Shown here: positions 4,265-34,089 of the stretch, piece by piece
How positions within the stretch are numbered: position 1 is the first letter of the stretch
Layout of the letters: the number at the start of each line of letters is the position of its first letter
Origin: an uncultured archaeon
GTDB taxonomy: Archaea > Aenigmatarchaeota > Aenigmatarchaeia > Aenigmatarchaeales > Aenigmatarchaeaceae
Length of the DNA stretch: 34,089 nt
NCBI GenBank assembly: GCA_964654075.1
Contig: CAZZIA010000001.1
Coordinates: 1-34,089 of the forward strand
Direction of reading: 5' to 3'
The notes under the pieces: model-generated
Told to the model about the DNA's origin: nothing
The model's database searches: none
Seen by the model: only the letters and a program-made list of their open reading frames with translations
Made by a program: the position numbers and the translations under genes

Positions 4265-4396
4265 TGGTGGACCCGCTGGGATTCTCAAAACCCTTTTGAT
4301 TAACTTTTTTCTAAAAGGTTATTTGAACCCAGGATCTCTTCCATGCCATTTCCGGATTTCTCCTAAGGAAGCGTCTTTCCGCTGGACCACGGGCCC
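4265..4396 (-). tRNA. tRNA-Ala(GGC), 2 introns (17 nt at 33/34, coordinates 4348-4364; 40 nt at 59/60, coordinates 4282-4321), CCA encoded
   Basis: Hand fold: GGGCCCG TG GTCC-AGCGGAA-AGAC G CTTCC TT|..|GGCAT GGAAG AGATC CTGGG TTCAAA|..|T CCCAG CGGGTCC A CCA. The G3:U70 Ala identity pair is present. The BHB central helices are TTCC/GGAA and TTCA/TGAG, each with 3-nt bulges. The spliced length is 75 nt. Confidence 0.85.
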
Positions 4397-6090
4397 TTAT
4401 AATTTTTATAAATTTTAAATAATTTATCCACTGTCCTTTTGTTTATTACCTTTATTTTATGACCACCGCTTCCATTAAAATGAGCACACCTATGACTTAA
4501 TACGGCGCCAGAAAATGTTTTTGGAATGTGACAATTATGAGTAAATATTCCAGAGCCGTGCATGAAATTTTTGTTTTTTTCTACCTCTATGTTATAGAAG
4601 TATTTTTTATGGTATTTCCCCCCTTTAACTCTCCTTATTCTAATGTATTTCAAATCTTTAAAGTTCTTTTCATGTTTCATTACCTTAATTTTTCTTATAT
4701 CTTTTTCCAAACCCCTATACTTAATAGCTAAATTACAATACTTCATAAATTTTGGTAAGAAAAATGTTTGTATGGCTATATCTTGCTCGTTTCTTCTTAA
4801 TCTGCCAACTATTTTTAATTTATTTAACAATAAAAGTATGCCGAAAATTAACTCTTTACTTTTAGAAAAGCCGGACAATACTATTGAGTTGGTTCTTTTA
4901 TTTATATTTATTTGGCCGTCTCCAGCAAACCAACCATCAATCAATCCTGCTATAAATTCATCAGGAGCATAAAAAACAAATGGTGGTATTTTTTTATATC
5001 GAGCCTTTTCGCCAAATCCTAATATATTGGATATTATATCTTGTAGAAATCTGCTATACACATATATAACTTTACAATTATTTTTAGTAGTTCTTTCCTT
5101 TGGATTTGCATTAAATCTCTTCTTTAGGACATATTTTATAAATTTATGATACTCTTTTTCATCTAGGTTAAAGCTAAATGAAACTGAACCTGCAGCATGA
5201 TCTATACTACCTTCACTCAAATAAAATCCGAAAAACCTTCCTAACTCATTATCCAGTATTAATTTTGATGGTATAACTGTAGATACGACGCCTTTCTTCA
5301 TTAACAGTCCATTTTCAATTTTTATTTCATCGAGTCTGTTTTTCTCTTTGAAAATGTTAAATAAGTTTATTTCTTTCACTTTTCTTTCAAGCTTCGGTAA
5401 AGAAAATAGTTCTGGTATTCTTATGTATAATTTTTCGTTTAAAATATCTTTAGCTGCACAATTTCTTAGTTTTACATAACCTTTAGGATGCTCATAAGAA
5501 TATCCGTGCTTTGTGAAAATAATGCCATGAGATGGGCTCGTTCTAATTATTCTACCATCTCTTGTAATTACCTTTATAATCTCTTTTTCTTTATTGTTTC
5601 TTCTCATTAATTTTTTAATACTTTTCATTTCAACTTTTCTTGTCTTAATGTCAATTGATATAACATTATATTTTTTTGAAGGATTTACCCATTCAATATT
5701 GTCTAATATATTTATTTTTTTAGCCAATTTAAACTCATTTTCTATGAGCTCGCCGATATCTTTGATTTTTAATCCCTCTCCATCCTCAATAACAATCTTC
5801 TCTTCATATGGAAGGCATAATTCATGTAACATCGTCTTCTGCTTCTCCTCTTCGCTCAATTCATCAAAGTTTTCGCTGACAGCCTCTATAACATAGTGGG
5901 CATCGACGCCCAAAGCCTTCTGCCATATTTTCGGCAACGACCATATCCGCGCATAAGCTCGGCTCGTGCTCTTGAAAGACCGCATGCACACCAGTCTGTC
6001 GACATCAATGTAATCTAGATTTAATTTTTTGACTATATCTTTGATAATTTCCTTTATGTCTGGCGCTGATTCGACTTTCATAAGAATCAT
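4363..6090 (-). CDS. predicted small Zn-metallopeptidase (HExxH, archaeal COG4900-like) interrupted by an intein
   Basis: The exteins (91 aa + 56 aa) read ...RAYARIWSLPKIWQKALGVDAHYVIEAVSENFDELSEEEKQKTMLHEL / CHIPKTFSGAVLSHR.... After splicing this gives HELCH. The last 34 nt of the ORF overlap the 5' part of tRNA-Ala on the same strand. Confidence 0.85.
   Translation of the reverse strand: MILMKVESAPDIKEIIKDIVKKLNLDYIDVDRLVCMRSFKSTSRAYARIWSLPKIWQKALGVDAHYVIEAVSENFDELSEEEKQKTMLHELCLPYEEKIVIEDGEGLKIKDIGELIENEFKLAKKINILDNIEWVNPSKKYNVISIDIKTRKVEMKSIKKLMRRNNKEKEIIKVITRDGRIIRTSPSHGIIFTKHGYSYEHPKGYVKLRNCAAKDILNEKLYIRIPELFSLPKLERKVKEINLFNIFKEKNRLDEIKIENGLLMKKGVVSTVIPSKLILDNELGRFFGFYLSEGSIDHAAGSVSFSFNLDEKEYHKFIKYVLKKRFNANPKERTTKNNCKVIYVYSRFLQDIISNILGFGEKARYKKIPPFVFYAPDEFIAGLIDGWFAGDGQININKRTNSIVLSGFSKSKELIFGILLLLNKLKIVGRLRRNEQDIAIQTFFLPKFMKYCNLAIKYRGLEKDIRKIKVMKHEKNFKDLKYIRIRRVKGGKYHKKYFYNIEVEKNKNFMHGSGIFTHNCHIPKTFSGAVLSHRCAHFNGSGGHKIKVINKRTVDKLFKIYKNYKGPWSSGKTLP
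4534..5817 (-). mobile_element. 428-aa class 1 intein with LAGLIDADG homing endonuclease domain
   Basis: N-terminal Cys (CLPYEEKIVIEDG, block A). Block B is GRIIRTSPSHGIIF. The LAGLIDADG motifs are LGRFFGFYLSEGSI and FIAGLIDGWFAGDGQI. Blocks F/G are YFYNIEVEKNKNFMHGSGIFTHN, followed by the +1 Cys. Codons at both junctions were checked by hand (TGC at 5817-5815; AAT TGT at 4536-4531). Confidence 0.85.
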
Positions 6091-18875: not shown

Positions 18876-19532
18876 ATGGGAGCATTTTGTTTTTTGTGCG
18901 GTAAAAAAACGGAAAACCTTATAGAAGGATATTGTGAAGAATGTTATAATAAGAAATTTTCATTAATAAAACTACCTAAAAGTTTTTCAATAAAAACTTG
19001 CAGCAAATGCGATCTTATTAAAATTGGGAATAAATGGCAAGAATTTGAACCAGAAAATTTTTTTAAAGGGGAAGCGAAAATTTTTGGGAAAATCAAAAAA
19101 TTGGAAATAAAAAAACAAAACAATGTGTTTAAAATTATTTGTAGTGGTTATCTAAAGGGGTCTGAGAAATTAAAAGAAGAGATGCATGAAGTTTATATAA
19201 AGCTTAATAAAATAATTTGCCCTGCTTGCTCAAGGCTGTATGGTGGTTATTATGAAGCTATCCTGCAACTAAGGGGCAAAATTAGCAATAATATTCTTGA
19301 TTTTATATCAAAAAAAAGCAGAAATCTACTTCTAACTGATAAAAAAGCTTTTTATAGAGCCGAGCAAAAGAAAGAAGGTATTAATATATATTTTGGCTCT
19401 AAGGGAGCTGCAAATCACATTGCCTTGGAGTTAAAAAATCGGTTTGGCTGCGAAATTAAGAGATCATTCAAACTCTTCACAAAAAAGGAAGGGAAGGATG
19501 TTTATAGAAATGTGATTTTAATAAGAATTTAA
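18876..19532 (+). CDS. NMD3-family protein (archaeal)
   Basis: 218 aa. It has N-terminal CxxC...CxxC, then CSKC and CPAC zinc knuckles, followed by YGGYYEAILQLRG, as in NMD3 N-terminal domains. Confidence 0.75.
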   Translation: MGAFCFLCGKKTENLIEGYCEECYNKKFSLIKLPKSFSIKTCSKCDLIKIGNKWQEFEPENFFKGEAKIFGKIKKLEIKKQNNVFKIICSGYLKGSEKLKEEMHEVYIKLNKIICPACSRLYGGYYEAILQLRGKISNNILDFISKKSRNLLLTDKKAFYRAEQKKEGINIYFGSKGAANHIALELKNRFGCEIKRSFKLFTKKEGKDVYRNVILIRI

Positions 19533-19549
19533 GTATTTGGTGCAGATAT

Positions 19550-19855
19550 ATGGGTATGGAGCAAGAAGAGATTTTAAGAATAAGAACCCCAAAGCAAGGG
19601 GAGATTTTAGGCTTAGTTATAGAGATGCTTGGTACAGGTAAACTTCGAGTTGAATGTGAAGATGGATTTACAAGAATATGTAGAATACCGGGTAAAATGA
19701 GAAAGAGGGTTTGGGTAAGAAATGGAGATCTTGTTATTGTTGAACCTTGGAAAGTACAGGAAAAGGAAAGAGCAGATATTGTCTGGAGATATACGAAAAC
19801 ACAAGCTAATTGGTTAAAAGAAAAAGGAATCGCTAAAAAACTTACAATTGAATAA
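19550..19855 (+). CDS. eif1a: translation initiation factor aIF-1A
   Basis: 101 aa with an S1/OB core: RIRTPKQGEILGLVIEMLGTGKLRVECEDGFTRICRIPGKMRKRVWVRNGDLVIVEPW. Confidence 0.9.
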   Translation: MGMEQEEILRIRTPKQGEILGLVIEMLGTGKLRVECEDGFTRICRIPGKMRKRVWVRNGDLVIVEPWKVQEKERADIVWRYTKTQANWLKEKGIAKKLTIE

Positions 19856-19934
19856 AAATAATCAATTATATTCTAATTCGGCACAAAAAGAATTTAAATA
19901 TTAAATCTATTTTATAAATAGAACAAATGATTTT

Positions 19935-20411
19935 ATGCAAGAAAGTGTTTTGATCCCCGAAAAAAGGGTGAAAGTTTTAATTAAAATGCTTGCTGAAACA
20001 GAACAGAAGCTTAAAGTCAAAATAAAAATAAAAGCAAACGTAGTGGAGCTTGATGGCGAAGGGATACCGCTTTATAGAGCAAAGATGATAATAAAAGCGG
20101 TTGCAAGAGGATTTGCACCTGAAGATGCACAAAGGCTTTTTGATGAGCAACAGCAACTTGAAATAATTGAACTTACTGATCTTAATCAAAAAAAGGCAGA
20201 AAGGATAAAGAGCAGAATTATAGGAACAGGTGGAAAAGCAAAATATATGATCGAACAGTTTACAGGATGTAAAATAGCAATTTGTGGAAAAACTATTTCA
20301 CTAATAGGCGGGTGGGAACAAAACCAAAATGCAAAACATGCGATAGAAATGTTTAAAAGAGGTGCAAAACATGCATCTGTATATGGCTTCTTAAGAAGTA
20401 TAAAAGAGTGA
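19935..20411 (+). CDS. KH-domain RNA-binding protein (Dim2/Pno1-like)
   Basis: 158 aa with two KH-like modules (GxxG-type IGTGGKAKYMIEQFTGCKIAI). The position downstream of aIF-1A is typical of archaea. Confidence 0.65.
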   Translation: MQESVLIPEKRVKVLIKMLAETEQKLKVKIKIKANVVELDGEGIPLYRAKMIIKAVARGFAPEDAQRLFDEQQQLEIIELTDLNQKKAERIKSRIIGTGGKAKYMIEQFTGCKIAICGKTISLIGGWEQNQNAKHAIEMFKRGAKHASVYGFLRSIKE

Positions 20412-26151: not shown

Positions 26152-26706
26152 ATGTTCGTTCGTATTGTCCCGGCAGGAAATATAGCTCCAAAAATTCTAG
26201 AGTTGGTATGTGCTGGACTTGAAGAAGTGCTAAACTCGAGATGTAGAATACTTCAAAAAGTACAAATACCAAAAGAAGCGTGGGATCACTGGAGAAGGCA
26301 ATATGATGCTGAAAAAATACTAGAGAGCCTCGTAGACACTGGTGCTGCAAAGTTCATAGACAAATCAATACCAACAATAGGCATAACAGATGAAGATATA
26401 TATTATAAGGGATTAAACTTTGTATTTGGGCTTGAAGAACCAGCTACAGGTTGTTGCATAGTATCGATTGCTAGACTAAAGCAGGAATTTTATGGCCAAA
26501 GTTCAAATATGGGGCTTTTAGTTGATAGGACTGTTAAAGAAGTTATACATCAAATTGGCCACCTTTTTGACTTAAGTCACTGCCAATACCCAACATGTGT
26601 GATGTGCTTTTCACCATCAGTAAACGACGTTGACAATAAGCAAAAGTATTTTTGTGACAACTGTAAAATTAAAATAGCGAGAAAAGGTATCAGGATGTCT
26701 GATTAA
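26152..26706 (+). CDS. amzA: archaemetzincin (peptidase M54)
   Basis: 184 aa. HQIGHLFDLSHC (HExxHxxGxxH-type with Q in place of E, plus Cys), followed by C..CVMCF and CDNC zinc-binding cysteines. Confidence 0.85.
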   Translation: MFVRIVPAGNIAPKILELVCAGLEEVLNSRCRILQKVQIPKEAWDHWRRQYDAEKILESLVDTGAAKFIDKSIPTIGITDEDIYYKGLNFVFGLEEPATGCCIVSIARLKQEFYGQSSNMGLLVDRTVKEVIHQIGHLFDLSHCQYPTCVMCFSPSVNDVDNKQKYFCDNCKIKIARKGIRMSD

Positions 26707-27246
26707 ATGACTGAAGGTAAACTTGTAGAAGATAAAGTAATTATCTGGGATATAGAAGGTGGGAAAGAAATTTATGAAACTGCATATTATGGCAAACTAA
26801 AGGAAGATAGGCTAGAGCTGGCATTGATAGAGGCATGCTTGCTTTTAGAAAGGCAGAAAATTGACATATTGGACGAAGATGGCAAAAAAATGAAATTTGA
26901 TAAATTTTTTCATTATTGCTGCAAAATTGATAAAAGATTTGTATCTAGATATGTTGTGTATAAAGATTTAAGGGAAAGAGGATTACCAGTAAGGACTGGA
27001 TTTAAATTTGGATGTGATTTTAGAGTTTATGAAAGAGGTGTAAAGCCGATAAAGAGGGGGCCAAAAGCACCTGGCGAGCACACAAAATGGATTGTATTTG
27101 CTGTTTCAGAAGATTATACGTGCTCATTTCATGAACTTTCAAGGGCTGTAAGACTTGCCCACAATATCAGAGCAAACATGCTATGGGCGATTGTTGATGC
27201 GGATTTAGATGTTACATATTATACAGTAACATTTACCAGACCTTAG
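26707..27246 (+). CDS. endA: tRNA-splicing endonuclease EndA (179 aa, alpha4-sized), atypical active site
   Basis: YVVYKDLRERGLPVRTGFKFGCDFRVYERG...GEHTKWIV...AVRLAHNIRANMLWAIVDADLDVTYYTVTF aligns along its length with the M. jannaschii EndA sequence as I recall it. Tyr and His of the triad are present. The Lys position reads Ala. Confidence 0.9.
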   Translation: MTEGKLVEDKVIIWDIEGGKEIYETAYYGKLKEDRLELALIEACLLLERQKIDILDEDGKKMKFDKFFHYCCKIDKRFVSRYVVYKDLRERGLPVRTGFKFGCDFRVYERGVKPIKRGPKAPGEHTKWIVFAVSEDYTCSFHELSRAVRLAHNIRANMLWAIVDADLDVTYYTVTFTRP

Positions 27247-27254
27247 GTGAGAAA

Positions 27255-28397
27255 ATGTTCGTAAAAGATATAATGTCAAAAGATATAGTATCTCTTTCTC
27301 CAGATGAGCCTGTATCAAAATTTATTTCTTTGATGGAACAATTGCACATACATGAAGTTCTCATTGTTGATGATGCTAAAAGGCTCTTGGGCGTTGTAGA
27401 TTATAAATCCCTTGTTACAACAGGCATTACAGACCCGACTTCGATACAACTTAAAAAGCTTATGCAACCTTTACCGCAGCTAGTTTCCCCTGAAGATGAC
27501 ATGTCTGATGCAGCTGATCTGATATTTAAAACAGGACTCCGTGCCGTTCCTGTAGTTAAAAATAAAAAAGTAGTTGGAATTGCCTCTGTATTTGATATAA
27601 TAAATAACATAATCAAGACAAAACAGTTTAGACAAACTTATGCAGAGGCTTTGATGTCTTCAGTTCTTACAGTTACAAAAGATGATGACATTGGCAAAGC
27701 CAGGGTATTAATAAGAGAAAGGAATTTATCAAGGCTGCCTGTTGTTAATTCTGACGGAAAGCTGGTTGGTGCTGTTGCTGTTTTTGACTTGCTAAAGGCA
27801 ATTAAGCCACGTGAAAGAATGGGCTGGTACTCTATGGTAGCTGAGAAAAAAAGGATAATGGGAATAGCTGTTTCAACTGTGATGAACCGTAACCCGGTTA
27901 CAGCTGCTAGAAGCGCATCACTAAATGAAATTGGAAATTTGATGGCAAAGTACAAAACTTCTGGCATTATTATAACTGATGATAGCAAACCGGTCGGTAT
28001 CATTACTTTAAAGGACTTGCTAGAAGTTTATATCGCAGGGATGCAACAAAAAGGAGTTTATTATCAAATCATAGGGATAGAAAATGAAGATGAATTTGTA
28101 TTAGACACTGTAGATAGAATGATAAGAGATACCATACAAAAACTTTCTTTCATTTATCCGCCGCAATTTTTCTTTGTACATGTAAAGAAGTATCAAAAGG
28201 AAGGCGCTGTAATGAAATACTCTGTCAGAACAAGGCTGAAAACAGACCGAGGTGTATTTATCAGCAGAGGGTGCAAATGGGATTTGCGAGATGCTGTTGG
28301 TGATGCTTTAGATCATCTAGAACGTGCAATGCTTAAATGGAAAGGTGTTGTTACAACAAAAACAAAACGTAACATACAAAAGTTGAAGCAAATATAA
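27255..28397 (+). CDS. four-CBS-domain protein with C-terminal HPF/RaiA (S30AE)-like domain
   Basis: 380 aa. There are two CBS pairs (aa ~1-120 and ~133-262, e.g. VMNRNPVTAARSASLNEIGNLMAKYKTSGIIITDDSKPVGIITLKDLL). The C-terminal ~100 aa (YQIIGIENEDEFVLDTVDRMIRDTIQKLSFIY...FFVHVKKY...YSVRTRLKTDRGVFISRGCKWDLRDAVGDALDHLERAMLKWKG) matches the HPF pattern. Confidence 0.8.
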   Translation: MFVKDIMSKDIVSLSPDEPVSKFISLMEQLHIHEVLIVDDAKRLLGVVDYKSLVTTGITDPTSIQLKKLMQPLPQLVSPEDDMSDAADLIFKTGLRAVPVVKNKKVVGIASVFDIINNIIKTKQFRQTYAEALMSSVLTVTKDDDIGKARVLIRERNLSRLPVVNSDGKLVGAVAVFDLLKAIKPRERMGWYSMVAEKKRIMGIAVSTVMNRNPVTAARSASLNEIGNLMAKYKTSGIIITDDSKPVGIITLKDLLEVYIAGMQQKGVYYQIIGIENEDEFVLDTVDRMIRDTIQKLSFIYPPQFFFVHVKKYQKEGAVMKYSVRTRLKTDRGVFISRGCKWDLRDAVGDALDHLERAMLKWKGVVTTKTKRNIQKLKQI

Positions 28398-28399
28398 AT

Positions 28400-29017
28400 T
28401 TATTTCATCCATTCATCTTCCCATTGCTTAAATTGTGTATCGCTTATTTCACTTTTTGATCCTTTGATTTTTATTTCACCAAACCTCTTTCTCATTTTCA
28501 GCCCAACGATTAATCCAAATCCAAGACCAAATAAATGGGCAGCATTTGCTATCTGGCCTGGGGCAAACATCCCAATCAGGTCACCTGCCGCCCACACAAA
28601 AGCTGCAACAGCAAGAGGCATTGGAACCATCCCAACCCAAACAGTCATTCTTGGCCTTAATATGGTTAAGCATCCTAAAACACCAAAAATTGCTCCTGAA
28701 GCTCCGATTGAAGCTGGATAAAATATTGCTGAGCCAATACCGGCAAATAAGCCTGAAATGAAAAATAGAACTAGGAATCTTTTACTTGAAATGATCTTTT
28801 CTAATATGGAACCGAAAAGTGCAAGTGCAAACATGTTATAAAGCAAATGCTCCATTGAACCATGTAAGAAAATATGAGTTAGCAAAATCCATGGCCTTGC
28901 AAGAAGATCAGCAGAAACTAATGCAAATCCTTCAGTTATAAATGGAAATAAAGCTTGCAAAACAAAAACTACTATACATACAGCTGCTAATTTTACAGCC
29001 CACCATTTAAATGCCAT
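28400..29017 (-). CDS. rhomboid family intramembrane serine protease
   Basis: 205 aa with 6 TM segments. HGSMEHLLYNMFALALFG, catalytic GASGAIFGVLG, and His in AAHLFGLGFG. Confidence 0.85.
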   Translation of the reverse strand: MAFKWWAVKLAAVCIVVFVLQALFPFITEGFALVSADLLARPWILLTHIFLHGSMEHLLYNMFALALFGSILEKIISSKRFLVLFFISGLFAGIGSAIFYPASIGASGAIFGVLGCLTILRPRMTVWVGMVPMPLAVAAFVWAAGDLIGMFAPGQIANAAHLFGLGFGLIVGLKMRKRFGEIKIKGSKSEISDTQFKQWEDEWMK

Positions 29018-29022
29018 AACAA

Positions 29023-30486
29023 CTATTTGAGCTTTTTAGATAAAACTTTTGCTAAGTCTTTTACAGAAACCCTTTCCTGCTTTGTCGTGTCCCTATTTCT
29101 GATTGTTACCGTATTATCCTTCATTGTATCATAATCTATTGTAATACAGAAAGGTGTTCCTGCTTCATCTTCCCTGTAATATCTTTTTCCTATAGAATCC
29201 TTTTCCTCGTAGTTTATCCAAAATCCATTTTTTATTAGCATGTCTGCTATTTCACTTGCTTTTTTATCTAGGCCATCCTTTGCCACTAGCGGGAATACGG
29301 CAGCATCAACTGGAGCTAGAAAATTTGGAATAGAAAGCCAGACCCTGTCGCCCTCCTTTCTATAAGAGTTGTCTATCAGGCAATAGAGCGGTCTGTCAAC
29401 ACCAAATGAAATTTCCCATACATGTGGTATAAACTTTTTTTCATCTTTAAAAATAGTAAAATCCTCACCGCTAAGGTTTGTATGAGCTGATAGGTCCCAG
29501 TCTGTTCTATAGTTGTTTGCAACACATTCTATCCAACCAAAACTATCTGTATAAATCTCACAATCCCATGCATACTTTGTGTAAAATGGTTTTTCCGTTT
29601 CGCTCATTTCTTTCATTCTAATTTTTTCTGTTGGGATCCCCAAGCTTTCAAAAAATTGTTGAACTCTTGCCAAATAATAAACAATAAATTTTGGCAGAAT
29701 ATTACTTTTAACGATCTGCTCTGCTGTTAAGGTTATGCTCTTGTCAGATTCTCTGTCTTTTAAAAGAAAGAGTTTTAGTTTATATTTTTTTATCTCATCA
29801 AATCTTGGATGCTCATTTATTTCATCTGGATCAAAAAATACCTCTGCCTCAGCTTGCGTAAATTCTCTAAGCCTTATTATTGCCTGCCTTGGCGATATTT
29901 CGTTTCTATATGCCTTTCCAATTTGAATAACCCCAAGGGGGAATTTTTTTCTAGCAATCTCAAAAACTCTTTTAAATGCTATAAAATGACCTTGTGCTGT
30001 TTCTGGTCTGCAGTAAACCTCTTTTTCAAGTCCTGCTGTTGTTTTAAACATCATGTTAAACAGCTCAACAACCAATAGCTGGGAACCGCATTTTGGGCAT
30101 TTTATTTTATTTTCTGTTATTAGTTTTTTCAGTTGCCCACAACCTAGCCCTTCAACATCCTCTCTTTTCATTTTTAATTTTTCTACCAACAGCAGGTCTG
30201 CTCTAAAAACAGAACTGCACTTATTGCATTTTGTCATTGGGTCAACAAACTTTTCTAAATGTCTTGATGCAACAAAAACTTCCTTTGGCATTATTGTCGG
30301 GGTTTCTATTTCAATAAATCCCTCCCTTTTGAAAAAATCTCTCCAATAATCTTGAAATTTCCTTTTTATAACAGCGCCTAGTGGCCCGTAATCGTAAAAT
30401 CCGGCCATGCCTCCATATATCTCAGCAGCAGGCCAAAAAAATCCTCTTCTTTTTGCTAACTGCTCAATTACATCAGCTTTAACCAT
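29023..30486 (-). CDS. glyS: glycine--tRNA ligase (archaeal/eukaryotic-type)
   Basis: 487 aa. RRGFFWPAAEIYGGMAGFYDYGPLG, a Zn-ribbon insertion (CNKCSSVFRAD...CPKCGS), FRNEISPR (motif 2) and GVDRPLY (motif 3). Confidence 0.92.
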   Translation of the reverse strand: MVKADVIEQLAKRRGFFWPAAEIYGGMAGFYDYGPLGAVIKRKFQDYWRDFFKREGFIEIETPTIMPKEVFVASRHLEKFVDPMTKCNKCSSVFRADLLLVEKLKMKREDVEGLGCGQLKKLITENKIKCPKCGSQLLVVELFNMMFKTTAGLEKEVYCRPETAQGHFIAFKRVFEIARKKFPLGVIQIGKAYRNEISPRQAIIRLREFTQAEAEVFFDPDEINEHPRFDEIKKYKLKLFLLKDRESDKSITLTAEQIVKSNILPKFIVYYLARVQQFFESLGIPTEKIRMKEMSETEKPFYTKYAWDCEIYTDSFGWIECVANNYRTDWDLSAHTNLSGEDFTIFKDEKKFIPHVWEISFGVDRPLYCLIDNSYRKEGDRVWLSIPNFLAPVDAAVFPLVAKDGLDKKASEIADMLIKNGFWINYEEKDSIGKRYYREDEAGTPFCITIDYDTMKDNTVTIRNRDTTKQERVSVKDLAKVLSKKLK

Positions 30487-30552
30487 ATAATCACTTATAA
30501 TATCCTAGATAAACATATATTTTAATATAATTTAAAAATTAGATGTGGTGAC

Positions 30553-31671
30553 ATGACAGAAAAAATGACTGTAACTCCGTGGGAAGTTAAAGGGGAAATT
30601 GATTATTACAAATTAATTAAGGAATTTGGTACAGAGCCACTAACAGATGAACTGATAGCCAGATTAAAGAGACATACAAAAGACCTGCATTTATTATTAA
30701 GAAGAAAAATGTTTTTCTCCCATCGTGATTTTGGTTGGATATTGGATGAATATGAAAAGGACAATAAATTTTACCTATACACTGGCAGAGGCCCCTCCGG
30801 GCATACGCATCTAGGCCACTTAATTCCATGGTTTTTAACAAAATGGTTGCAAGATAAGTTTAAAGCTAAACTTTATTTTCAGCTAACAGATGATGAAAAG
30901 TTTTTATTTAACCCTAAGCTTTCGATAGAAGATACACAAAAATTTGCATATGAAAATACGCTAGACATAATTGCACTTGGATTTGACCAAAAGAGAACAT
31001 TTGTTTTTTCAGATATCAACTATGCAAAAACTTTATATAAAGAAGCGCTAAAAGTCGCAAAGAAGCTAACATTTTCAACAACAAAGGCGGTTTTTGGTTT
31101 TACATCTGAAAGCAATGTTGGGCAAATATTTTTTACTAGTATGCAATCTGTTCCATGCTTTTTAGAATCTATAAAAGCTGGCAAGAATGTTCCATGCCTG
31201 ATTCCGCTTGCAATAGATCAGGATCCTCATTTTAGGATAACAAGGGACATTGCTCCAAAACTAGGATATTATAAGCCTGCCATAATTCATTCCAAATTCT
31301 TACCTGGGTTAGGCAAAGGAGGTAAGATGTCTGCATCAGAGCCAGACACTTGCATTTTCACTACAGATAGCCAAGAACAAATTGATAGGAAAATTTCAAA
31401 TGCATTCACAGGAGGAGCCGCGACAATAAAGGAACAAAAAGAAAAAGGAGGTAATCCTGATATCTGCTCTGTGTATCAGTATTATTATTTTGTTTTTGAG
31501 CCAGATGATAAAAAAGTAAAAGAACTAAAAGAAAAATGCAAAGCTGGAAAAATTATGTGCGGTGAGTGTAAGAAAGAGCTTGCTAGCCGAATTAAGAAGT
31601 TTATGGCTGAACATCAAAAGAAAAGAGAGCAGGCAAAAAAAGTAATAGATAAATTTATTTTAAGTGATTGA
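30553..31671 (+). CDS. trpS: tryptophan--tRNA ligase (archaeal/eukaryotic-type)
   Basis: 372 aa. TPWEVKGEIDYYKLIKEFG, GRGPSGHTHLGHLIPW (HIGH-type) and KMSAS (KMSKS-type). Confidence 0.9.
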   Translation: MTEKMTVTPWEVKGEIDYYKLIKEFGTEPLTDELIARLKRHTKDLHLLLRRKMFFSHRDFGWILDEYEKDNKFYLYTGRGPSGHTHLGHLIPWFLTKWLQDKFKAKLYFQLTDDEKFLFNPKLSIEDTQKFAYENTLDIIALGFDQKRTFVFSDINYAKTLYKEALKVAKKLTFSTTKAVFGFTSESNVGQIFFTSMQSVPCFLESIKAGKNVPCLIPLAIDQDPHFRITRDIAPKLGYYKPAIIHSKFLPGLGKGGKMSASEPDTCIFTTDSQEQIDRKISNAFTGGAATIKEQKEKGGNPDICSVYQYYYFVFEPDDKKVKELKEKCKAGKIMCGECKKELASRIKKFMAEHQKKREQAKKVIDKFILSD

Positions 31672-32925
31672 ATGTATGAGCTAACAGAAGAGGGCAAAGA
31701 ATATTTAAAAGAAGGTTTGCCAGAAAAGCAGCTATTAAAAAAAATAAAATCTTTCTTAATCAGCAAAAAGCCATTAGAAGAAATTAAAAAGATGCCCCAC
31801 TCAGAAATAGCAATCGCCTGGGCTAGAAAAAACGGATGGGCGCAAATTGTTGGCGATTTTATTGAACTAACAAAAGCTGGAGCAGATATGGCAGAAAAAA
31901 GGACCCCTCTTGAGCTGGCGCTTGGACAAGTAGCTCAAGCAGGCGATGCAGAAGGGTCCGAGATAAAAATTTTATTAAGCAGGGGGCTGATTGAGAAAAT
32001 AAGAGAAAGGAAAATAGCACAGAAGGAAATAGCGCAACTAAGCCCTGGGATAATAGTAACAGGAGAGTGGAAAAATATCCCTTTTAGAAAATATGATGTT
32101 AGCACACCTGCCCCTGTTATTTGGGCTGGCAAAAAACAGCCATATGTTCAATTTATAGAGGATGTGAAAGCGAAGTTGGTTGGGCTCGGCTTTCAAGAAG
32201 TTTCTGGCCCTTTGGTTGAGCTGTCTTTTTGGAACTGTGACGCTCTTTTTACCCCACAGGACCATCCAGCAAAAAGCATACATGACATTTTTTATTTAAA
32301 ATGTCCGCAAAACGGAAAACTTCCTGACAAAAGTTTAGTTGCAAAAGTCAAGGCAACGCATCAGAACGGATGGACTACTGGAAGTACAGGATGGGGCGGA
32401 ACATGGGATGAGGGGGATGCCTCAAATCTAATAATGCGGTCGCACACAACTCCTGTATCAGCCAGAACTTTATTTAAACTTGGAGAGACCACTGGAAAGT
32501 ATTTTACAATAAGTAAGAATTTCAGACCGGATATTATTGATGCAAAACATTTGATGGAGTTTTATCAGTGTGAGGGTATTGTTGTTGGGAAAGGCCTAAC
32601 ATTTAGGCATTTGCTAGGCTATCTAAAGGAACTTGCAAGTGCTGTTGGAATAAAAGAGGTTAGATTTAAGCCGGGGTATTTCCCGTTCACAGAGCCTTCT
32701 GTTGAAGGTTATATAAACCATCCAAAACTTGGTTGGATAGAAGCTCTTCCAGCCGGCTTGCTAAGACCGGAGGTACTAAAGCCTCTAGGAATAGAAAATG
32801 CTCAGGTTCTGGCATGGGGCCTAGGGATTGATAGGTTAGCTATGGCTAAACTTGGGATAGATGATATCAGATTATTGTTCACAGATAATTTGGATTGGCT
32901 AAGAAAAAGCTCATTGGTGATATAG
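31672..32925 (+). CDS. pheS: phenylalanine--tRNA ligase alpha subunit
   Basis: 417 aa with class II motifs: HPAKSIHDIFY, MRSHTTPVSART, FRPD.IDAKHLMEFYQCEG, GYFPFTEPS and AWGLGIDRLAM. Confidence 0.92.
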   Translation: MYELTEEGKEYLKEGLPEKQLLKKIKSFLISKKPLEEIKKMPHSEIAIAWARKNGWAQIVGDFIELTKAGADMAEKRTPLELALGQVAQAGDAEGSEIKILLSRGLIEKIRERKIAQKEIAQLSPGIIVTGEWKNIPFRKYDVSTPAPVIWAGKKQPYVQFIEDVKAKLVGLGFQEVSGPLVELSFWNCDALFTPQDHPAKSIHDIFYLKCPQNGKLPDKSLVAKVKATHQNGWTTGSTGWGGTWDEGDASNLIMRSHTTPVSARTLFKLGETTGKYFTISKNFRPDIIDAKHLMEFYQCEGIVVGKGLTFRHLLGYLKELASAVGIKEVRFKPGYFPFTEPSVEGYINHPKLGWIEALPAGLLRPEVLKPLGIENAQVLAWGLGIDRLAMAKLGIDDIRLLFTDNLDWLRKSSLVI

Positions 32926-34089
32926 TGGTTGCAATAGAGATTGAAAAATCAGACCTGTTAAACCTAATTGGAAAGAAACTAACAGATGAACAAATAAAAG
33001 AAGCTTTATTTTTGCTAAAGTGTGAAAGCAGTATTTCTGACAATGTGATTAACTATGAGTTAAATCCTGATAGGCCTGATATGTTTTGTGTTGAAGGACT
33101 GGCTATGGCGATAAAGGGCTTTTTGGGAATTGAAACCGGTGCACCAAAATATGTCATCAGCGAATCAAAGATTAAGATAAAAAAGGATAACGCAAAAGTG
33201 AGGCCTTTTATTGCTGGAGCTGTTATAAAAAATGTAAAACTAAGCGATCAGCTTGTCCGTAGCCTGATGCAAATTCAAGAAAAATTGCATGCAACAATTG
33301 GGAGAGATAGAAGAAAGGTTGCAATTGGCGTGCATGATTTAAAAAATATCAAGCCGCCGTTTATCTATAAAGATGTTGAACCGGAGAAAATCAGCTTCAT
33401 CCCTCTTGATGAAACAAGGGAGATGAACTTAAATGAAATTTTAAAATACCACCCGAAAGGAAAAGATTTTGCTCATTTGCTTAAAGGTTTGGAAAAATAT
33501 CCGATAATTATTGATAGCAAAAAACAAGTTTTAAGCTTTCCGCCAATAATAAACGGCGAACTAACAAAGGTTACAAAAAAAACAAAAAATATATTTATTG
33601 ATGTCACCGGAACAGATGAACTGGCCGTTAACCAAGCTTTAAATGTCCTGGTTTGCACCATTGTTGAAAGGTCTGGAAAAATAGCAAGTGTAAAGATTGA
33701 TAATAAGTTATGCCCAAATCTTGAACCTCGACAAATGAAATTAGACGTCGAACAAATAGATAGGTTGCTAGGGCTTGGACTAAAAGAAAGGGAAATTTCA
33801 AAAATACTTGAAAGAATGCGTTATTCTGTGTTAAAGCTAAAGGGAGGAAAGATTGATATTTTAATCCCGCCTTTTAGGACTGATATCTTACATGCAGTTG
33901 ATATAATAGAGGATGTTGTAATTGGCTACGGATATAACAATATAATTCCTGTCCTACCAAAAATAGCAACAATTGGTACTATTTCTGAAAAGGAAAGGTT
34001 TTGCTCTAAGCTGAGAGAAGTGGCTATTGGCCTGGGCTTTCAGGAAGTAATCAGCTTTGTGCTAACTAATAAAGAAAACCAATTTAACA
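32925..34089 (+). CDS. pheT: phenylalanine--tRNA ligase beta subunit (5' part; continues beyond the window)
   Basis: The GTG start overlaps the pheS stop (taGTG). Hand translation stays open to the window end: VVAIEIEKSDLLNLIGKKLTDEQ..., NPDRPDMFCVEGLAMAIKGFLGIETG, IGVHDLKNIKPPFIY, RTDILHAVDIIEDVVIGYGYNNI. Confidence 0.9.
   Translation, partial: MVAIEIEKSDLLNLIGKKLTDEQIKEALFLLKCESSISDNVINYELNPDRPDMFCVEGLAMAIKGFLGIETGAPKYVISESKIKIKKDNAKVRPFIAGAVIKNVKLSDQLVRSLMQIQEKLHATIGRDRRKVAIGVHDLKNIKPPFIYKDVEPEKISFIPLDETREMNLNEILKYHPKGKDFAHLLKGLEKYPIIIDSKKQVLSFPPIINGELTKVTKKTKNIFIDVTGTDELAVNQALNVLVCTIVERSGKIASVKIDNKLCPNLEPRQMKLDVEQIDRLLGLGLKEREISKILERMRYSVLKLKGGKIDILIPPFRTDILHAVDIIEDVVIGYGYNNIIPVLPKIATIGTISEKERFCSKLREVAIGLGFQEVISFVLTNKENQFN

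Follow-up and report, generated by a model that had tools for sequence, protein, structure and literature searches.

The window analysed here is a stretch of 34,089 nucleotides (nt), positions 1 to 34,089 of contig CAZZIA010000001.1, from an uncultured archaeon of the phylum Aenigmatarchaeota, a member of the DPANN group. On its forward strand, an open reading frame (ORF) opens with ATG and runs without interruption through 380 codons to its stop. The encoded protein consists of a tetrad of CBS domains followed by a C-terminal domain that resembles the ribosome-hibernation proteins HPF and RaiA (Table 1). With high probability, the gene represents in Aenigmatarchaeota (DPANN) the factor for archaeal ribosome hibernation described under the names HibA and AHA, as an ortholog, and the evidence supports its product, a fusion of four CBS domains with an HPF/RaiA-like domain, as a candidate archaeal ribosome-hibernation factor.

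Table 1. Coordinates of the hibA-type gene and its parts in the window. Coordinates and E values of the individual CBS domains are from a six-frame PF00571 search of the window's own genome.
Feature	Position	Strand	Residues, motifs	Basis
hibA/AHA-type gene, complete (CBS tetrad fused to HPF/RaiA-like domain)	27255..28397	+		ORF and homology to P. abyssi HibA
CBS1	27261..27416	+	~3-54	PF00571 match, E 4.2e-12
CBS2	27453..27611	+	~67-119; G-x-x-S-x-x-D motif G108/S111/D114	PF00571, E 9.8e-10
CBS3	27651..27806	+	~133-184; motif G172-A-V-A175-V-F-D178	PF00571, E 6.8e-13
Long post-CBS3 loop	27804..27863	+	184-203, KPRERMGWYSMVAEKKRIMG	Counterpart of HibA peptidyl-transferase centre (PTC) loop / AHA 'loop 3'
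CBS4	27870..28031	+	~206-259; motif G248-I-I-T251-L-K-D254	PF00571, E 2.8e-13
HPF/RaiA-like C-terminal domain	28056..28337	+		PF02482 below cut-off, AlphaFold2 topology, Foldseek
Basic C-terminal tail, extending the last helix	28338..28394	+	362-380, WKGVVTTKTKRNIQKLKQI; net charge +6	AlphaFold2 helix 344-379

A Pfam scan of the whole protein recognises PF00571 in four stretches (E 5.3e-47), in agreement with the first-pass annotation, which had proposed four CBS domains in the N-terminal ~260 amino acids (aa). The only other family matched is PF02482 (Ribosomal_S30AE), on residues 286-363, and this match coincides with the segment (nt 28056-28349, residues 268-365) that the same annotation had likened to HPF; its ORF coordinates were likewise exact. 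The PF02482 match is faint in this one sequence (whole protein: E 0.012, 16.8 bits; C-terminal 113 aa scanned separately: E 0.001, 20.2 bits), and a six-frame search of the genome finds the S30AE-like stretch at 28107-28343 with 19.2 bits. It becomes clearer in the family. With the C-terminal region as query, 40 homologs were gathered, nearly all of ~370-386 aa and of the same architecture (a few are partial sequences), from which two alignments were made, one of 35 full-length sequences and one of 29 C-terminal domains. In individual scans of the latter, PF02482 was matched by 27 of 29 (E <= 1; best E 4.4e-9), and no family besides PF02482 recurred consistently. A phmmer search of 1.84 billion representative proteins, clustered at 50% identity, returned 256 clusters at E <= 0.001, most of them proteins of 350-410 aa that carry the domain C-terminally and some of them standalone, with 100-130 aa.

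Why is the domain not seen in the databases? In most members of the family the HPF domain falls under the Pfam cut-off, and the proteins are therefore labelled by their CBS domains only, so that annotation pipelines miss the rest. A precomputed PF02482 annotation is present in just 2 of the 40 family members, and in the source databases the proteins go by 'CBS domain-containing protein' or 'predicted transcriptional regulator'. For archaeal HibA/AHA, the HPF domain is thus a systematic blind spot of standard annotation.

AlphaFold2, run on the alignment of full-length sequences, produced a full-length model with a mean predicted local distance difference test score (pLDDT) of 82.8, in which the C-terminal region has the topology beta(269-273)-alpha(280-298)-beta(303-313)-beta(321-330)-beta(333-341)-alpha(344-379). 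The topology was unchanged when the domain was modelled alone (pLDDT 84.7, predicted template modelling score 0.74). When the PDB was searched with the C-terminal model in Foldseek, the 38 best matches were all HPF/RaiA/YfiA/pY proteins, with probability 1.00, template modelling (TM) scores up to 0.77 and root-mean-square deviations of ~3 Å. They include spinach and Chlamydomonas pY, the HPF proteins of Listeria, Vibrio, E. coli, mycobacteria, staphylococci and Bacillus, and YfiA on the Thermus 70S ribosome; the first unrelated fold, a double-stranded RNA-binding domain, appears from rank 39. The HPF/RaiA-like fold that had been proposed for residues ~268-365 is thereby borne out. With the full-length model, the best match was ribosome-bound SriA (E 1.7e-21), followed by AMPK-gamma, and Dri was also present; this search, of a PDB library reaching to 2026-04-08, was dominated by CBS-tetrad matches and did not return the HibA entries, which the library date may explain.

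The probable identity of the protein follows from a comparison with PDB sequences. The C-terminal family profile matched first 9sr9_H (named "Dehydrogenase", 392 aa) at E 1.2e-9 and second 9l96_a (406 aa) at E 4e-4, in each case at the C-terminus of the chain, and next came RaiA/YfiA/HPF chains at E ~0.1. The 9SR9 entry is the "HibA-ATP" structure from Pyrococcus abyssi (Madru et al., Nat Commun 2026, PMC13324472). The full-length family profile matched 9sr9_H at E 7.6e-59, with profile positions 2-370 aligned to chain residues 5-381, and 9l96_a at E 1.2e-37, with both modules aligned; in a direct BLASTP comparison the window protein and P. abyssi HibA are 29% identical over residues 3-361 (E 1e-44). 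All three proteins have the motif R325-x-R327-x-x-T330-D-x-G-x-F (window numbering) in common, and in every one of the 35 relatives the C-terminal tail carries a net positive charge (+1 to +8). For this gene, the analysis itself shows how the domains are arranged, which fold the C-terminal one has, that the homology to HibA is full-length and that loop and motifs are conserved. The chain 9l96_a is presumably another HibA/AHA structure. It is named merely 'CBS domain-containing protein' (entries 9L96, 9L98, 9L9C and 9L9V) and looks haloarchaeal, being acidic; a literature search for the origin of PDB 9L96 found no paper naming the entry.

The family was described independently by two groups, each with cryo-electron microscopy (cryo-EM) of ribosome complexes and with knockouts (PMC13324472, PMC13728122): as HibA in P. 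abyssi and Thermococcus barophilus (PMC13324472; PDB 9SR9-9SRF and 9T7H), and as AHA, the HVO_2384 protein of Hfx. volcanii, of identical architecture (Souza et al., EMBO J 2026, PMC13728122). These orthologs bind the 70S ribosome across both subunits, block the mRNA and tRNA sites and preserve ribosomes in stationary phase (PMC13324472, PMC13728122). HibA's C-terminal domain occupies the mRNA/tRNA channel of the 30S subunit, and its CBS module takes up three positions on the 50S subunit, in one of which a long loop enters the PTC; HibA also inhibits translation in vitro (PMC13324472). In AHA, the CBS tetrad is related to AMPK-gamma, loop 3 lies in the PTC, and two adenosine monophosphate (AMP) molecules are bound on the ribosome, with AMP between CBS3 and CBS4 (PMC13728122). 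Nucleotide binding was demonstrated by isothermal titration calorimetry (ITC) for HibA (PMC13324472) and by cryo-EM density for AHA (PMC13728122). HibA is found in 47% of 4026 archaeal genomes, in all major lineages, and the genome table of that study covers Aenigmatarchaeota; HPF-like proteins of the standalone kind are known there chiefly from DPANN and Nitrososphaerales (PMC13324472); for AHA, 3160 homologs in 17 archaeal phyla were reported (PMC13728122).

The reading of the gene as a hibernation-type CBS-HPF fusion, proposed in the first-pass annotation, is therefore supported by the fold matches, by the PF02482 matches in the family and by the homology to HibA. The novelty that it claimed for such a fusion in an archaeon, on the other hand, is outdated, since this architecture is widespread in archaea and has been characterised there (PMC13324472, PMC13728122). 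The window gene is an ordinary ortholog of a family found and characterised in 2025-2026, and as a discovery it is small: the CBS-HPF fusion is an established and widespread archaeal hibernation factor. What is added here is the set of Aenigmatarchaeota orthologs, the CBS-only annotation that hides a sub-cut-off S30AE domain in most members, and a conserved EndA-HibA neighbourhood. A reading of the raw sequence nevertheless recovered, independently, a real and recently validated biological idea.

The similarity to HibA extends to the loop that would act on the ribosome. In both profile and BLASTP alignments, residues 184-203 (KPRERMGWYSMVAEKKRIMG) align with residues ~188-207 of P. abyssi HibA (KPRFKAQYGELAGEKIPPF), where the PTC loop is defined as residues 190-207 (PMC13324472). 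It belongs to the most strongly conserved parts of the protein in the Aenigmatarchaeota family: E197 is invariant in the 35 sequences, K184 and P185 are kept in 33 of them, and S193 and M194 in 32. AlphaFold2 models it as loop-like, with pLDDT values of 65 (residues 181-190) and 51 (191-200). An extended CBS3 loop, the counterpart of the HibA PTC loop and AHA loop 3, is thus present in the sequence; its insertion into the PTC is suggested by the orthologs. The CBS ribose-binding motif G-x-x-S/T-x-x-D is kept across the family in CBS2, CBS3 and CBS4. In CBS4, G248 and D254 are invariant (35/35) and T251 is found in 32 of 35; in CBS3, D178 is kept in 34 of 35, and position 175 is Thr or Ser in 31 of 35 and Ala in the window protein (codon 27777-27779). 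In CBS2, G108, S111 and D114 are each kept in 32-34 of 35 relatives (D114 in 33), whereas CBS2 of P. abyssi HibA reads G-V-I-S-D-M-A, without the Asp. The intact CBS2 motif may thus be a lineage difference from P. abyssi HibA. To read the absence of this Asp as a difference at a nucleotide site is to draw on general knowledge of CBS domains.

How would such a protein act? By homology with its published orthologs, the window protein would be expected to bind ribosomes and nucleotides, to inhibit translation and to preserve ribosomes. The HPF/RaiA-like domain and the basic tail would bind the small subunit in the mRNA/tRNA channel, at the A and P sites, in the manner of bacterial HPF; the CBS tetrad would sit on the large subunit above the tRNA sites, and the long CBS3 loop (residues ~184-203) would enter the PTC. 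Through the fusion of its two modules, the protein would hold the 30S and 50S subunits together as an idle, nuclease-protected 70S ribosome when the cell is starved or stressed. The interface of CBS3 and CBS4 is a probable binding site for adenine nucleotides, with a preference for AMP.

Several observations weigh against the reading of the gene as a HibA ortholog. The identity to the characterised HibA is low, only 29%, and the experimentally characterised members are the P. abyssi/T. barophilus and Hfx. volcanii proteins, none of them from DPANN. None of the PF02482 scores of the window protein reaches the Pfam gathering cut-off of 23.7 bits, and in an NCBIfam scan no model matches the C-terminal domain. 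BLASTP of the C-terminal domain against the HPF of E. coli K-12, taken from the hpf gene sequence, gives no alignment at all at E <= 100. According to Madru et al. (PMC13324472), the residues of the CBS module that touch the ribosome are not the conserved ones, so the mode of 50S binding could differ. Binding of nucleotide at the CBS3 site may be weakened by the presence of Ala175 in its motif, and in P. abyssi HibA itself AMP and adenosine triphosphate (ATP) left the conformational landscape largely unchanged (PMC13324472).

The distance to E. coli HPF shows that the 'almost position by position' match claimed in the first-pass annotation was overstated: even hhalign, with the family profile against the single E. 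coli sequence, gives a marginal result (E 0.005, probability 6.9%) over 44 columns spanning beta3-beta4-alpha2. Of the motifs it listed, DL..AV..ALD.LER...K.K is literally present (DLRDAVGDALDHLERAMLKWK), while the supposed V.V.VKK reads V-H-V-K-K and the supposed I-x-G-x-N-x-E is off by one residue (I-I-G-I-E-N-E). The kinship of the C-terminal domain to HPF is real, yet visible solely at the level of profile and fold. Might the likeness then be superficial, and the protein a CBS-tetrad regulator with a non-ribosomal role, either an HhpR-like transcription regulator or a generic Bateman sensor? The sub-cut-off PF02482 score and the database names, which mention only CBS domains or transcriptional regulation, would be in keeping with this, and so would a weak NCBIfam match to HhpR (E 3e-14). 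That the C-terminal domain matches HibA's own at E 1.2e-9, that the 38 best fold matches are exclusively HPF/RaiA factors and that the counterpart of the PTC loop is conserved make it a very improbable explanation. The HhpR-like regulator in particular is rejected: the match scores 52.8 bits against a cut-off of 520 bits and is restricted to the CBS part. That the fusion is an artefact of annotation or assembly (for example, two adjacent genes joined) or a decaying gene has a negligible probability. The source assembly is indeed fragmented, into 112 contigs; however, the reading frame is uninterrupted, conservation is strong over the entire length, and the 370-386-aa architecture recurs in at least 30 independent genomes at 41-56% identity and in ~250 clusters at 50% identity, which are mostly 350-410 aa long with the domain at the C-terminus. 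With so many independent full-length orthologs, the fusion artefact is likewise rejected.

The ortholog reading leaves room for a further proposal made in the first-pass annotation, a direct coupling of energy charge to ribosome silencing. Ribosome engagement by this HibA-family protein would then be switched, the AMP-bound form binding and the ATP-bound form releasing the ribosome, and nucleotide binding would be more than a structural feature or a signal to some other partner. The family-wide conservation of the ribose-binding motifs in CBS2, CBS3 and CBS4 and the resemblance of the fold to AMPK-gamma would fit such a switch. So would the affinities of the HibA CBS module, which by ITC decrease from AMP (dissociation constant 12 uM) through adenosine diphosphate to ATP (PMC13324472), and the two AMP molecules in ribosome-associated AHA (PMC13728122). 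On the other hand, AMP left both the classes and their distribution unchanged in the reconstituted P. abyssi complexes, and ATP produced just one weakly populated extra uL5 state beyond the three conformations, from which no role of ATP in release can be concluded (PMC13324472); Ala175 in the window protein also speaks against it. The switch is thus a tentative proposal and on balance a doubtful one: coupling of energy charge to ribosome silencing is a hypothesis for the characterised orthologs too.

Compared with the known systems, the window protein is closest to HibA of P. abyssi and T. barophilus. The two have the same length and architecture, with a CBS tetrad at ~1-269 followed by the HPF/RaiA-like domain, and align from end to end; both have the post-CBS3 loop and the RxRxxTDxGxF motif, and in both the last helix is long and the C-terminus basic. 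They differ, apart from the modest identity, in CBS2, which is canonical in the window protein, and in their hosts, an uncultivated DPANN archaeon with a ~0.68-Mb genome versus a hyperthermophilic euryarchaeon. AHA is the same family under another name, the same fusion of four CBS domains with HPF, and haloarchaeal loci match the window protein over its full length at 24-27% identity; AHA is more distantly related than HibA and belongs to an acidic haloarchaeal proteome.

The bacterial and plastid HPF/RaiA proteins (YfiA, pY, PSRP1; PF02482) are similar at the profile level and presumably bind the same 30S site. They are either standalone proteins of ~95-115 aa or long HPFs with a C-terminal dimerisation domain, whereas the domain in the window protein lies C-terminal to a 260-aa CBS tetrad, has a longer last helix and a basic tail, scores under the Pfam cut-off and has no BLASTP similarity to E. 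coli HPF. SriA-D/ARC and Dri (PDB 9ZNF/9ZNG/9ZNI and 9E6Q) share the CBS-tetrad fold and are themselves ribosome-binding CBS modules, SriA being the top fold match of the full-length model; they are without an HPF domain, and in sequence only the CBS part is alike (E 5e-28, versus 7.6e-59 for HibA). Eukaryotic AMPK-gamma, finally, has the fold of a four-CBS adenine-nucleotide sensor (TM ~0.52 by query and 0.64 by target, ~15% identity), but it is the regulatory subunit of a kinase with alpha and beta partners and has neither an HPF domain nor a role on the ribosome.

The host has a typical reduced DPANN genome of 676 kb in 112 contigs (91.6% complete). In six-frame searches of this genome, no HPF-like locus and no CBS tetrad turned up besides the window gene: three further CBS proteins are short CBS pairs, and the PF00571 search found no standalone tetrads of the SriA-D/Dri type. 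Such a pattern agrees with published work in which HibA and standalone CBS-tetrad factors exclude each other (PMC13324472). An extremely reduced genome thus retains one HibA and no other recognisable hibernation factor, a sign that preserving ribosomes may be important to the lifestyle of the symbiont. The relatives at 41-56% identity are almost all metagenome-assembled genomes labelled "Candidatus Aenigmatarchaeota", with a few labelled Nanoarchaeota or Micrarchaeota, and those at 24-31% identity come from Halobacteria, Wolframiiraptor and Nitrososphaeria.

The gene has a conserved setting within this phylum. Upstream, an archaemetzincin gene (26152-26706) abuts that of the tRNA-splicing endonuclease EndA (26707-27246), which is separated from hibA by an 8-nt gap, the three genes running in the same direction; downstream, and convergent on hibA, lie the genes for a rhomboid protein (28400-29017) and glycyl-tRNA synthetase (GlyRS; 29023-30486). 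Only 2 nt lie between the hibA stop codon (28395-28397) and that of the rhomboid gene (28400-28402), with no space for separate terminators. EndA is directly upstream of HibA, at a distance of 8-70 nt, in ~24 of 31 Aenigmatarchaeota loci, and most of them keep the entire arrangement, from archaemetzincin through EndA to HibA and on to the convergent rhomboid and GlyRS genes downstream; the archaemetzincin-EndA-HibA order is absent from the distant loci examined (haloarchaeal, Thermoproteota and Nitrososphaeria). The conserved neighbourhood may be an operon or merely reflect phylum-wide collinearity. If it were a true operon, tRNA-intron processing could be tied to ribosome hibernation in these genomes, which are rich in tRNA introns; if the CBS2 motif were functional, the DPANN proteins could have an additional nucleotide site, sensing adenylates supplied by the host. 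That both lineage features are functional, the one as an operon linking tRNA-intron processing to hibernation and the other as an extra site for host-supplied adenylates, is improbable.

The window is also rich in genes for translation and ribosome biogenesis around hibA (1274-2260, 18876-20411 and 29023-34088). These encode a Pelota/aRF1-like protein (eRF1 domains 1-3), NMD3, aIF1A and a PNO1/KRR1-like KH protein, as well as GlyRS, a class Ib (Trp/Tyr) tRNA synthetase and the alpha and beta chains of phenylalanyl-tRNA synthetase. Elsewhere in the window, a 575-aa ORF on the reverse strand (4363-6090) combines an N-terminal PF18894 'putative phage metallopeptidase' domain with intein splicing and LAGLIDADG homing-endonuclease domains; it is an intein-containing metallopeptidase gene.

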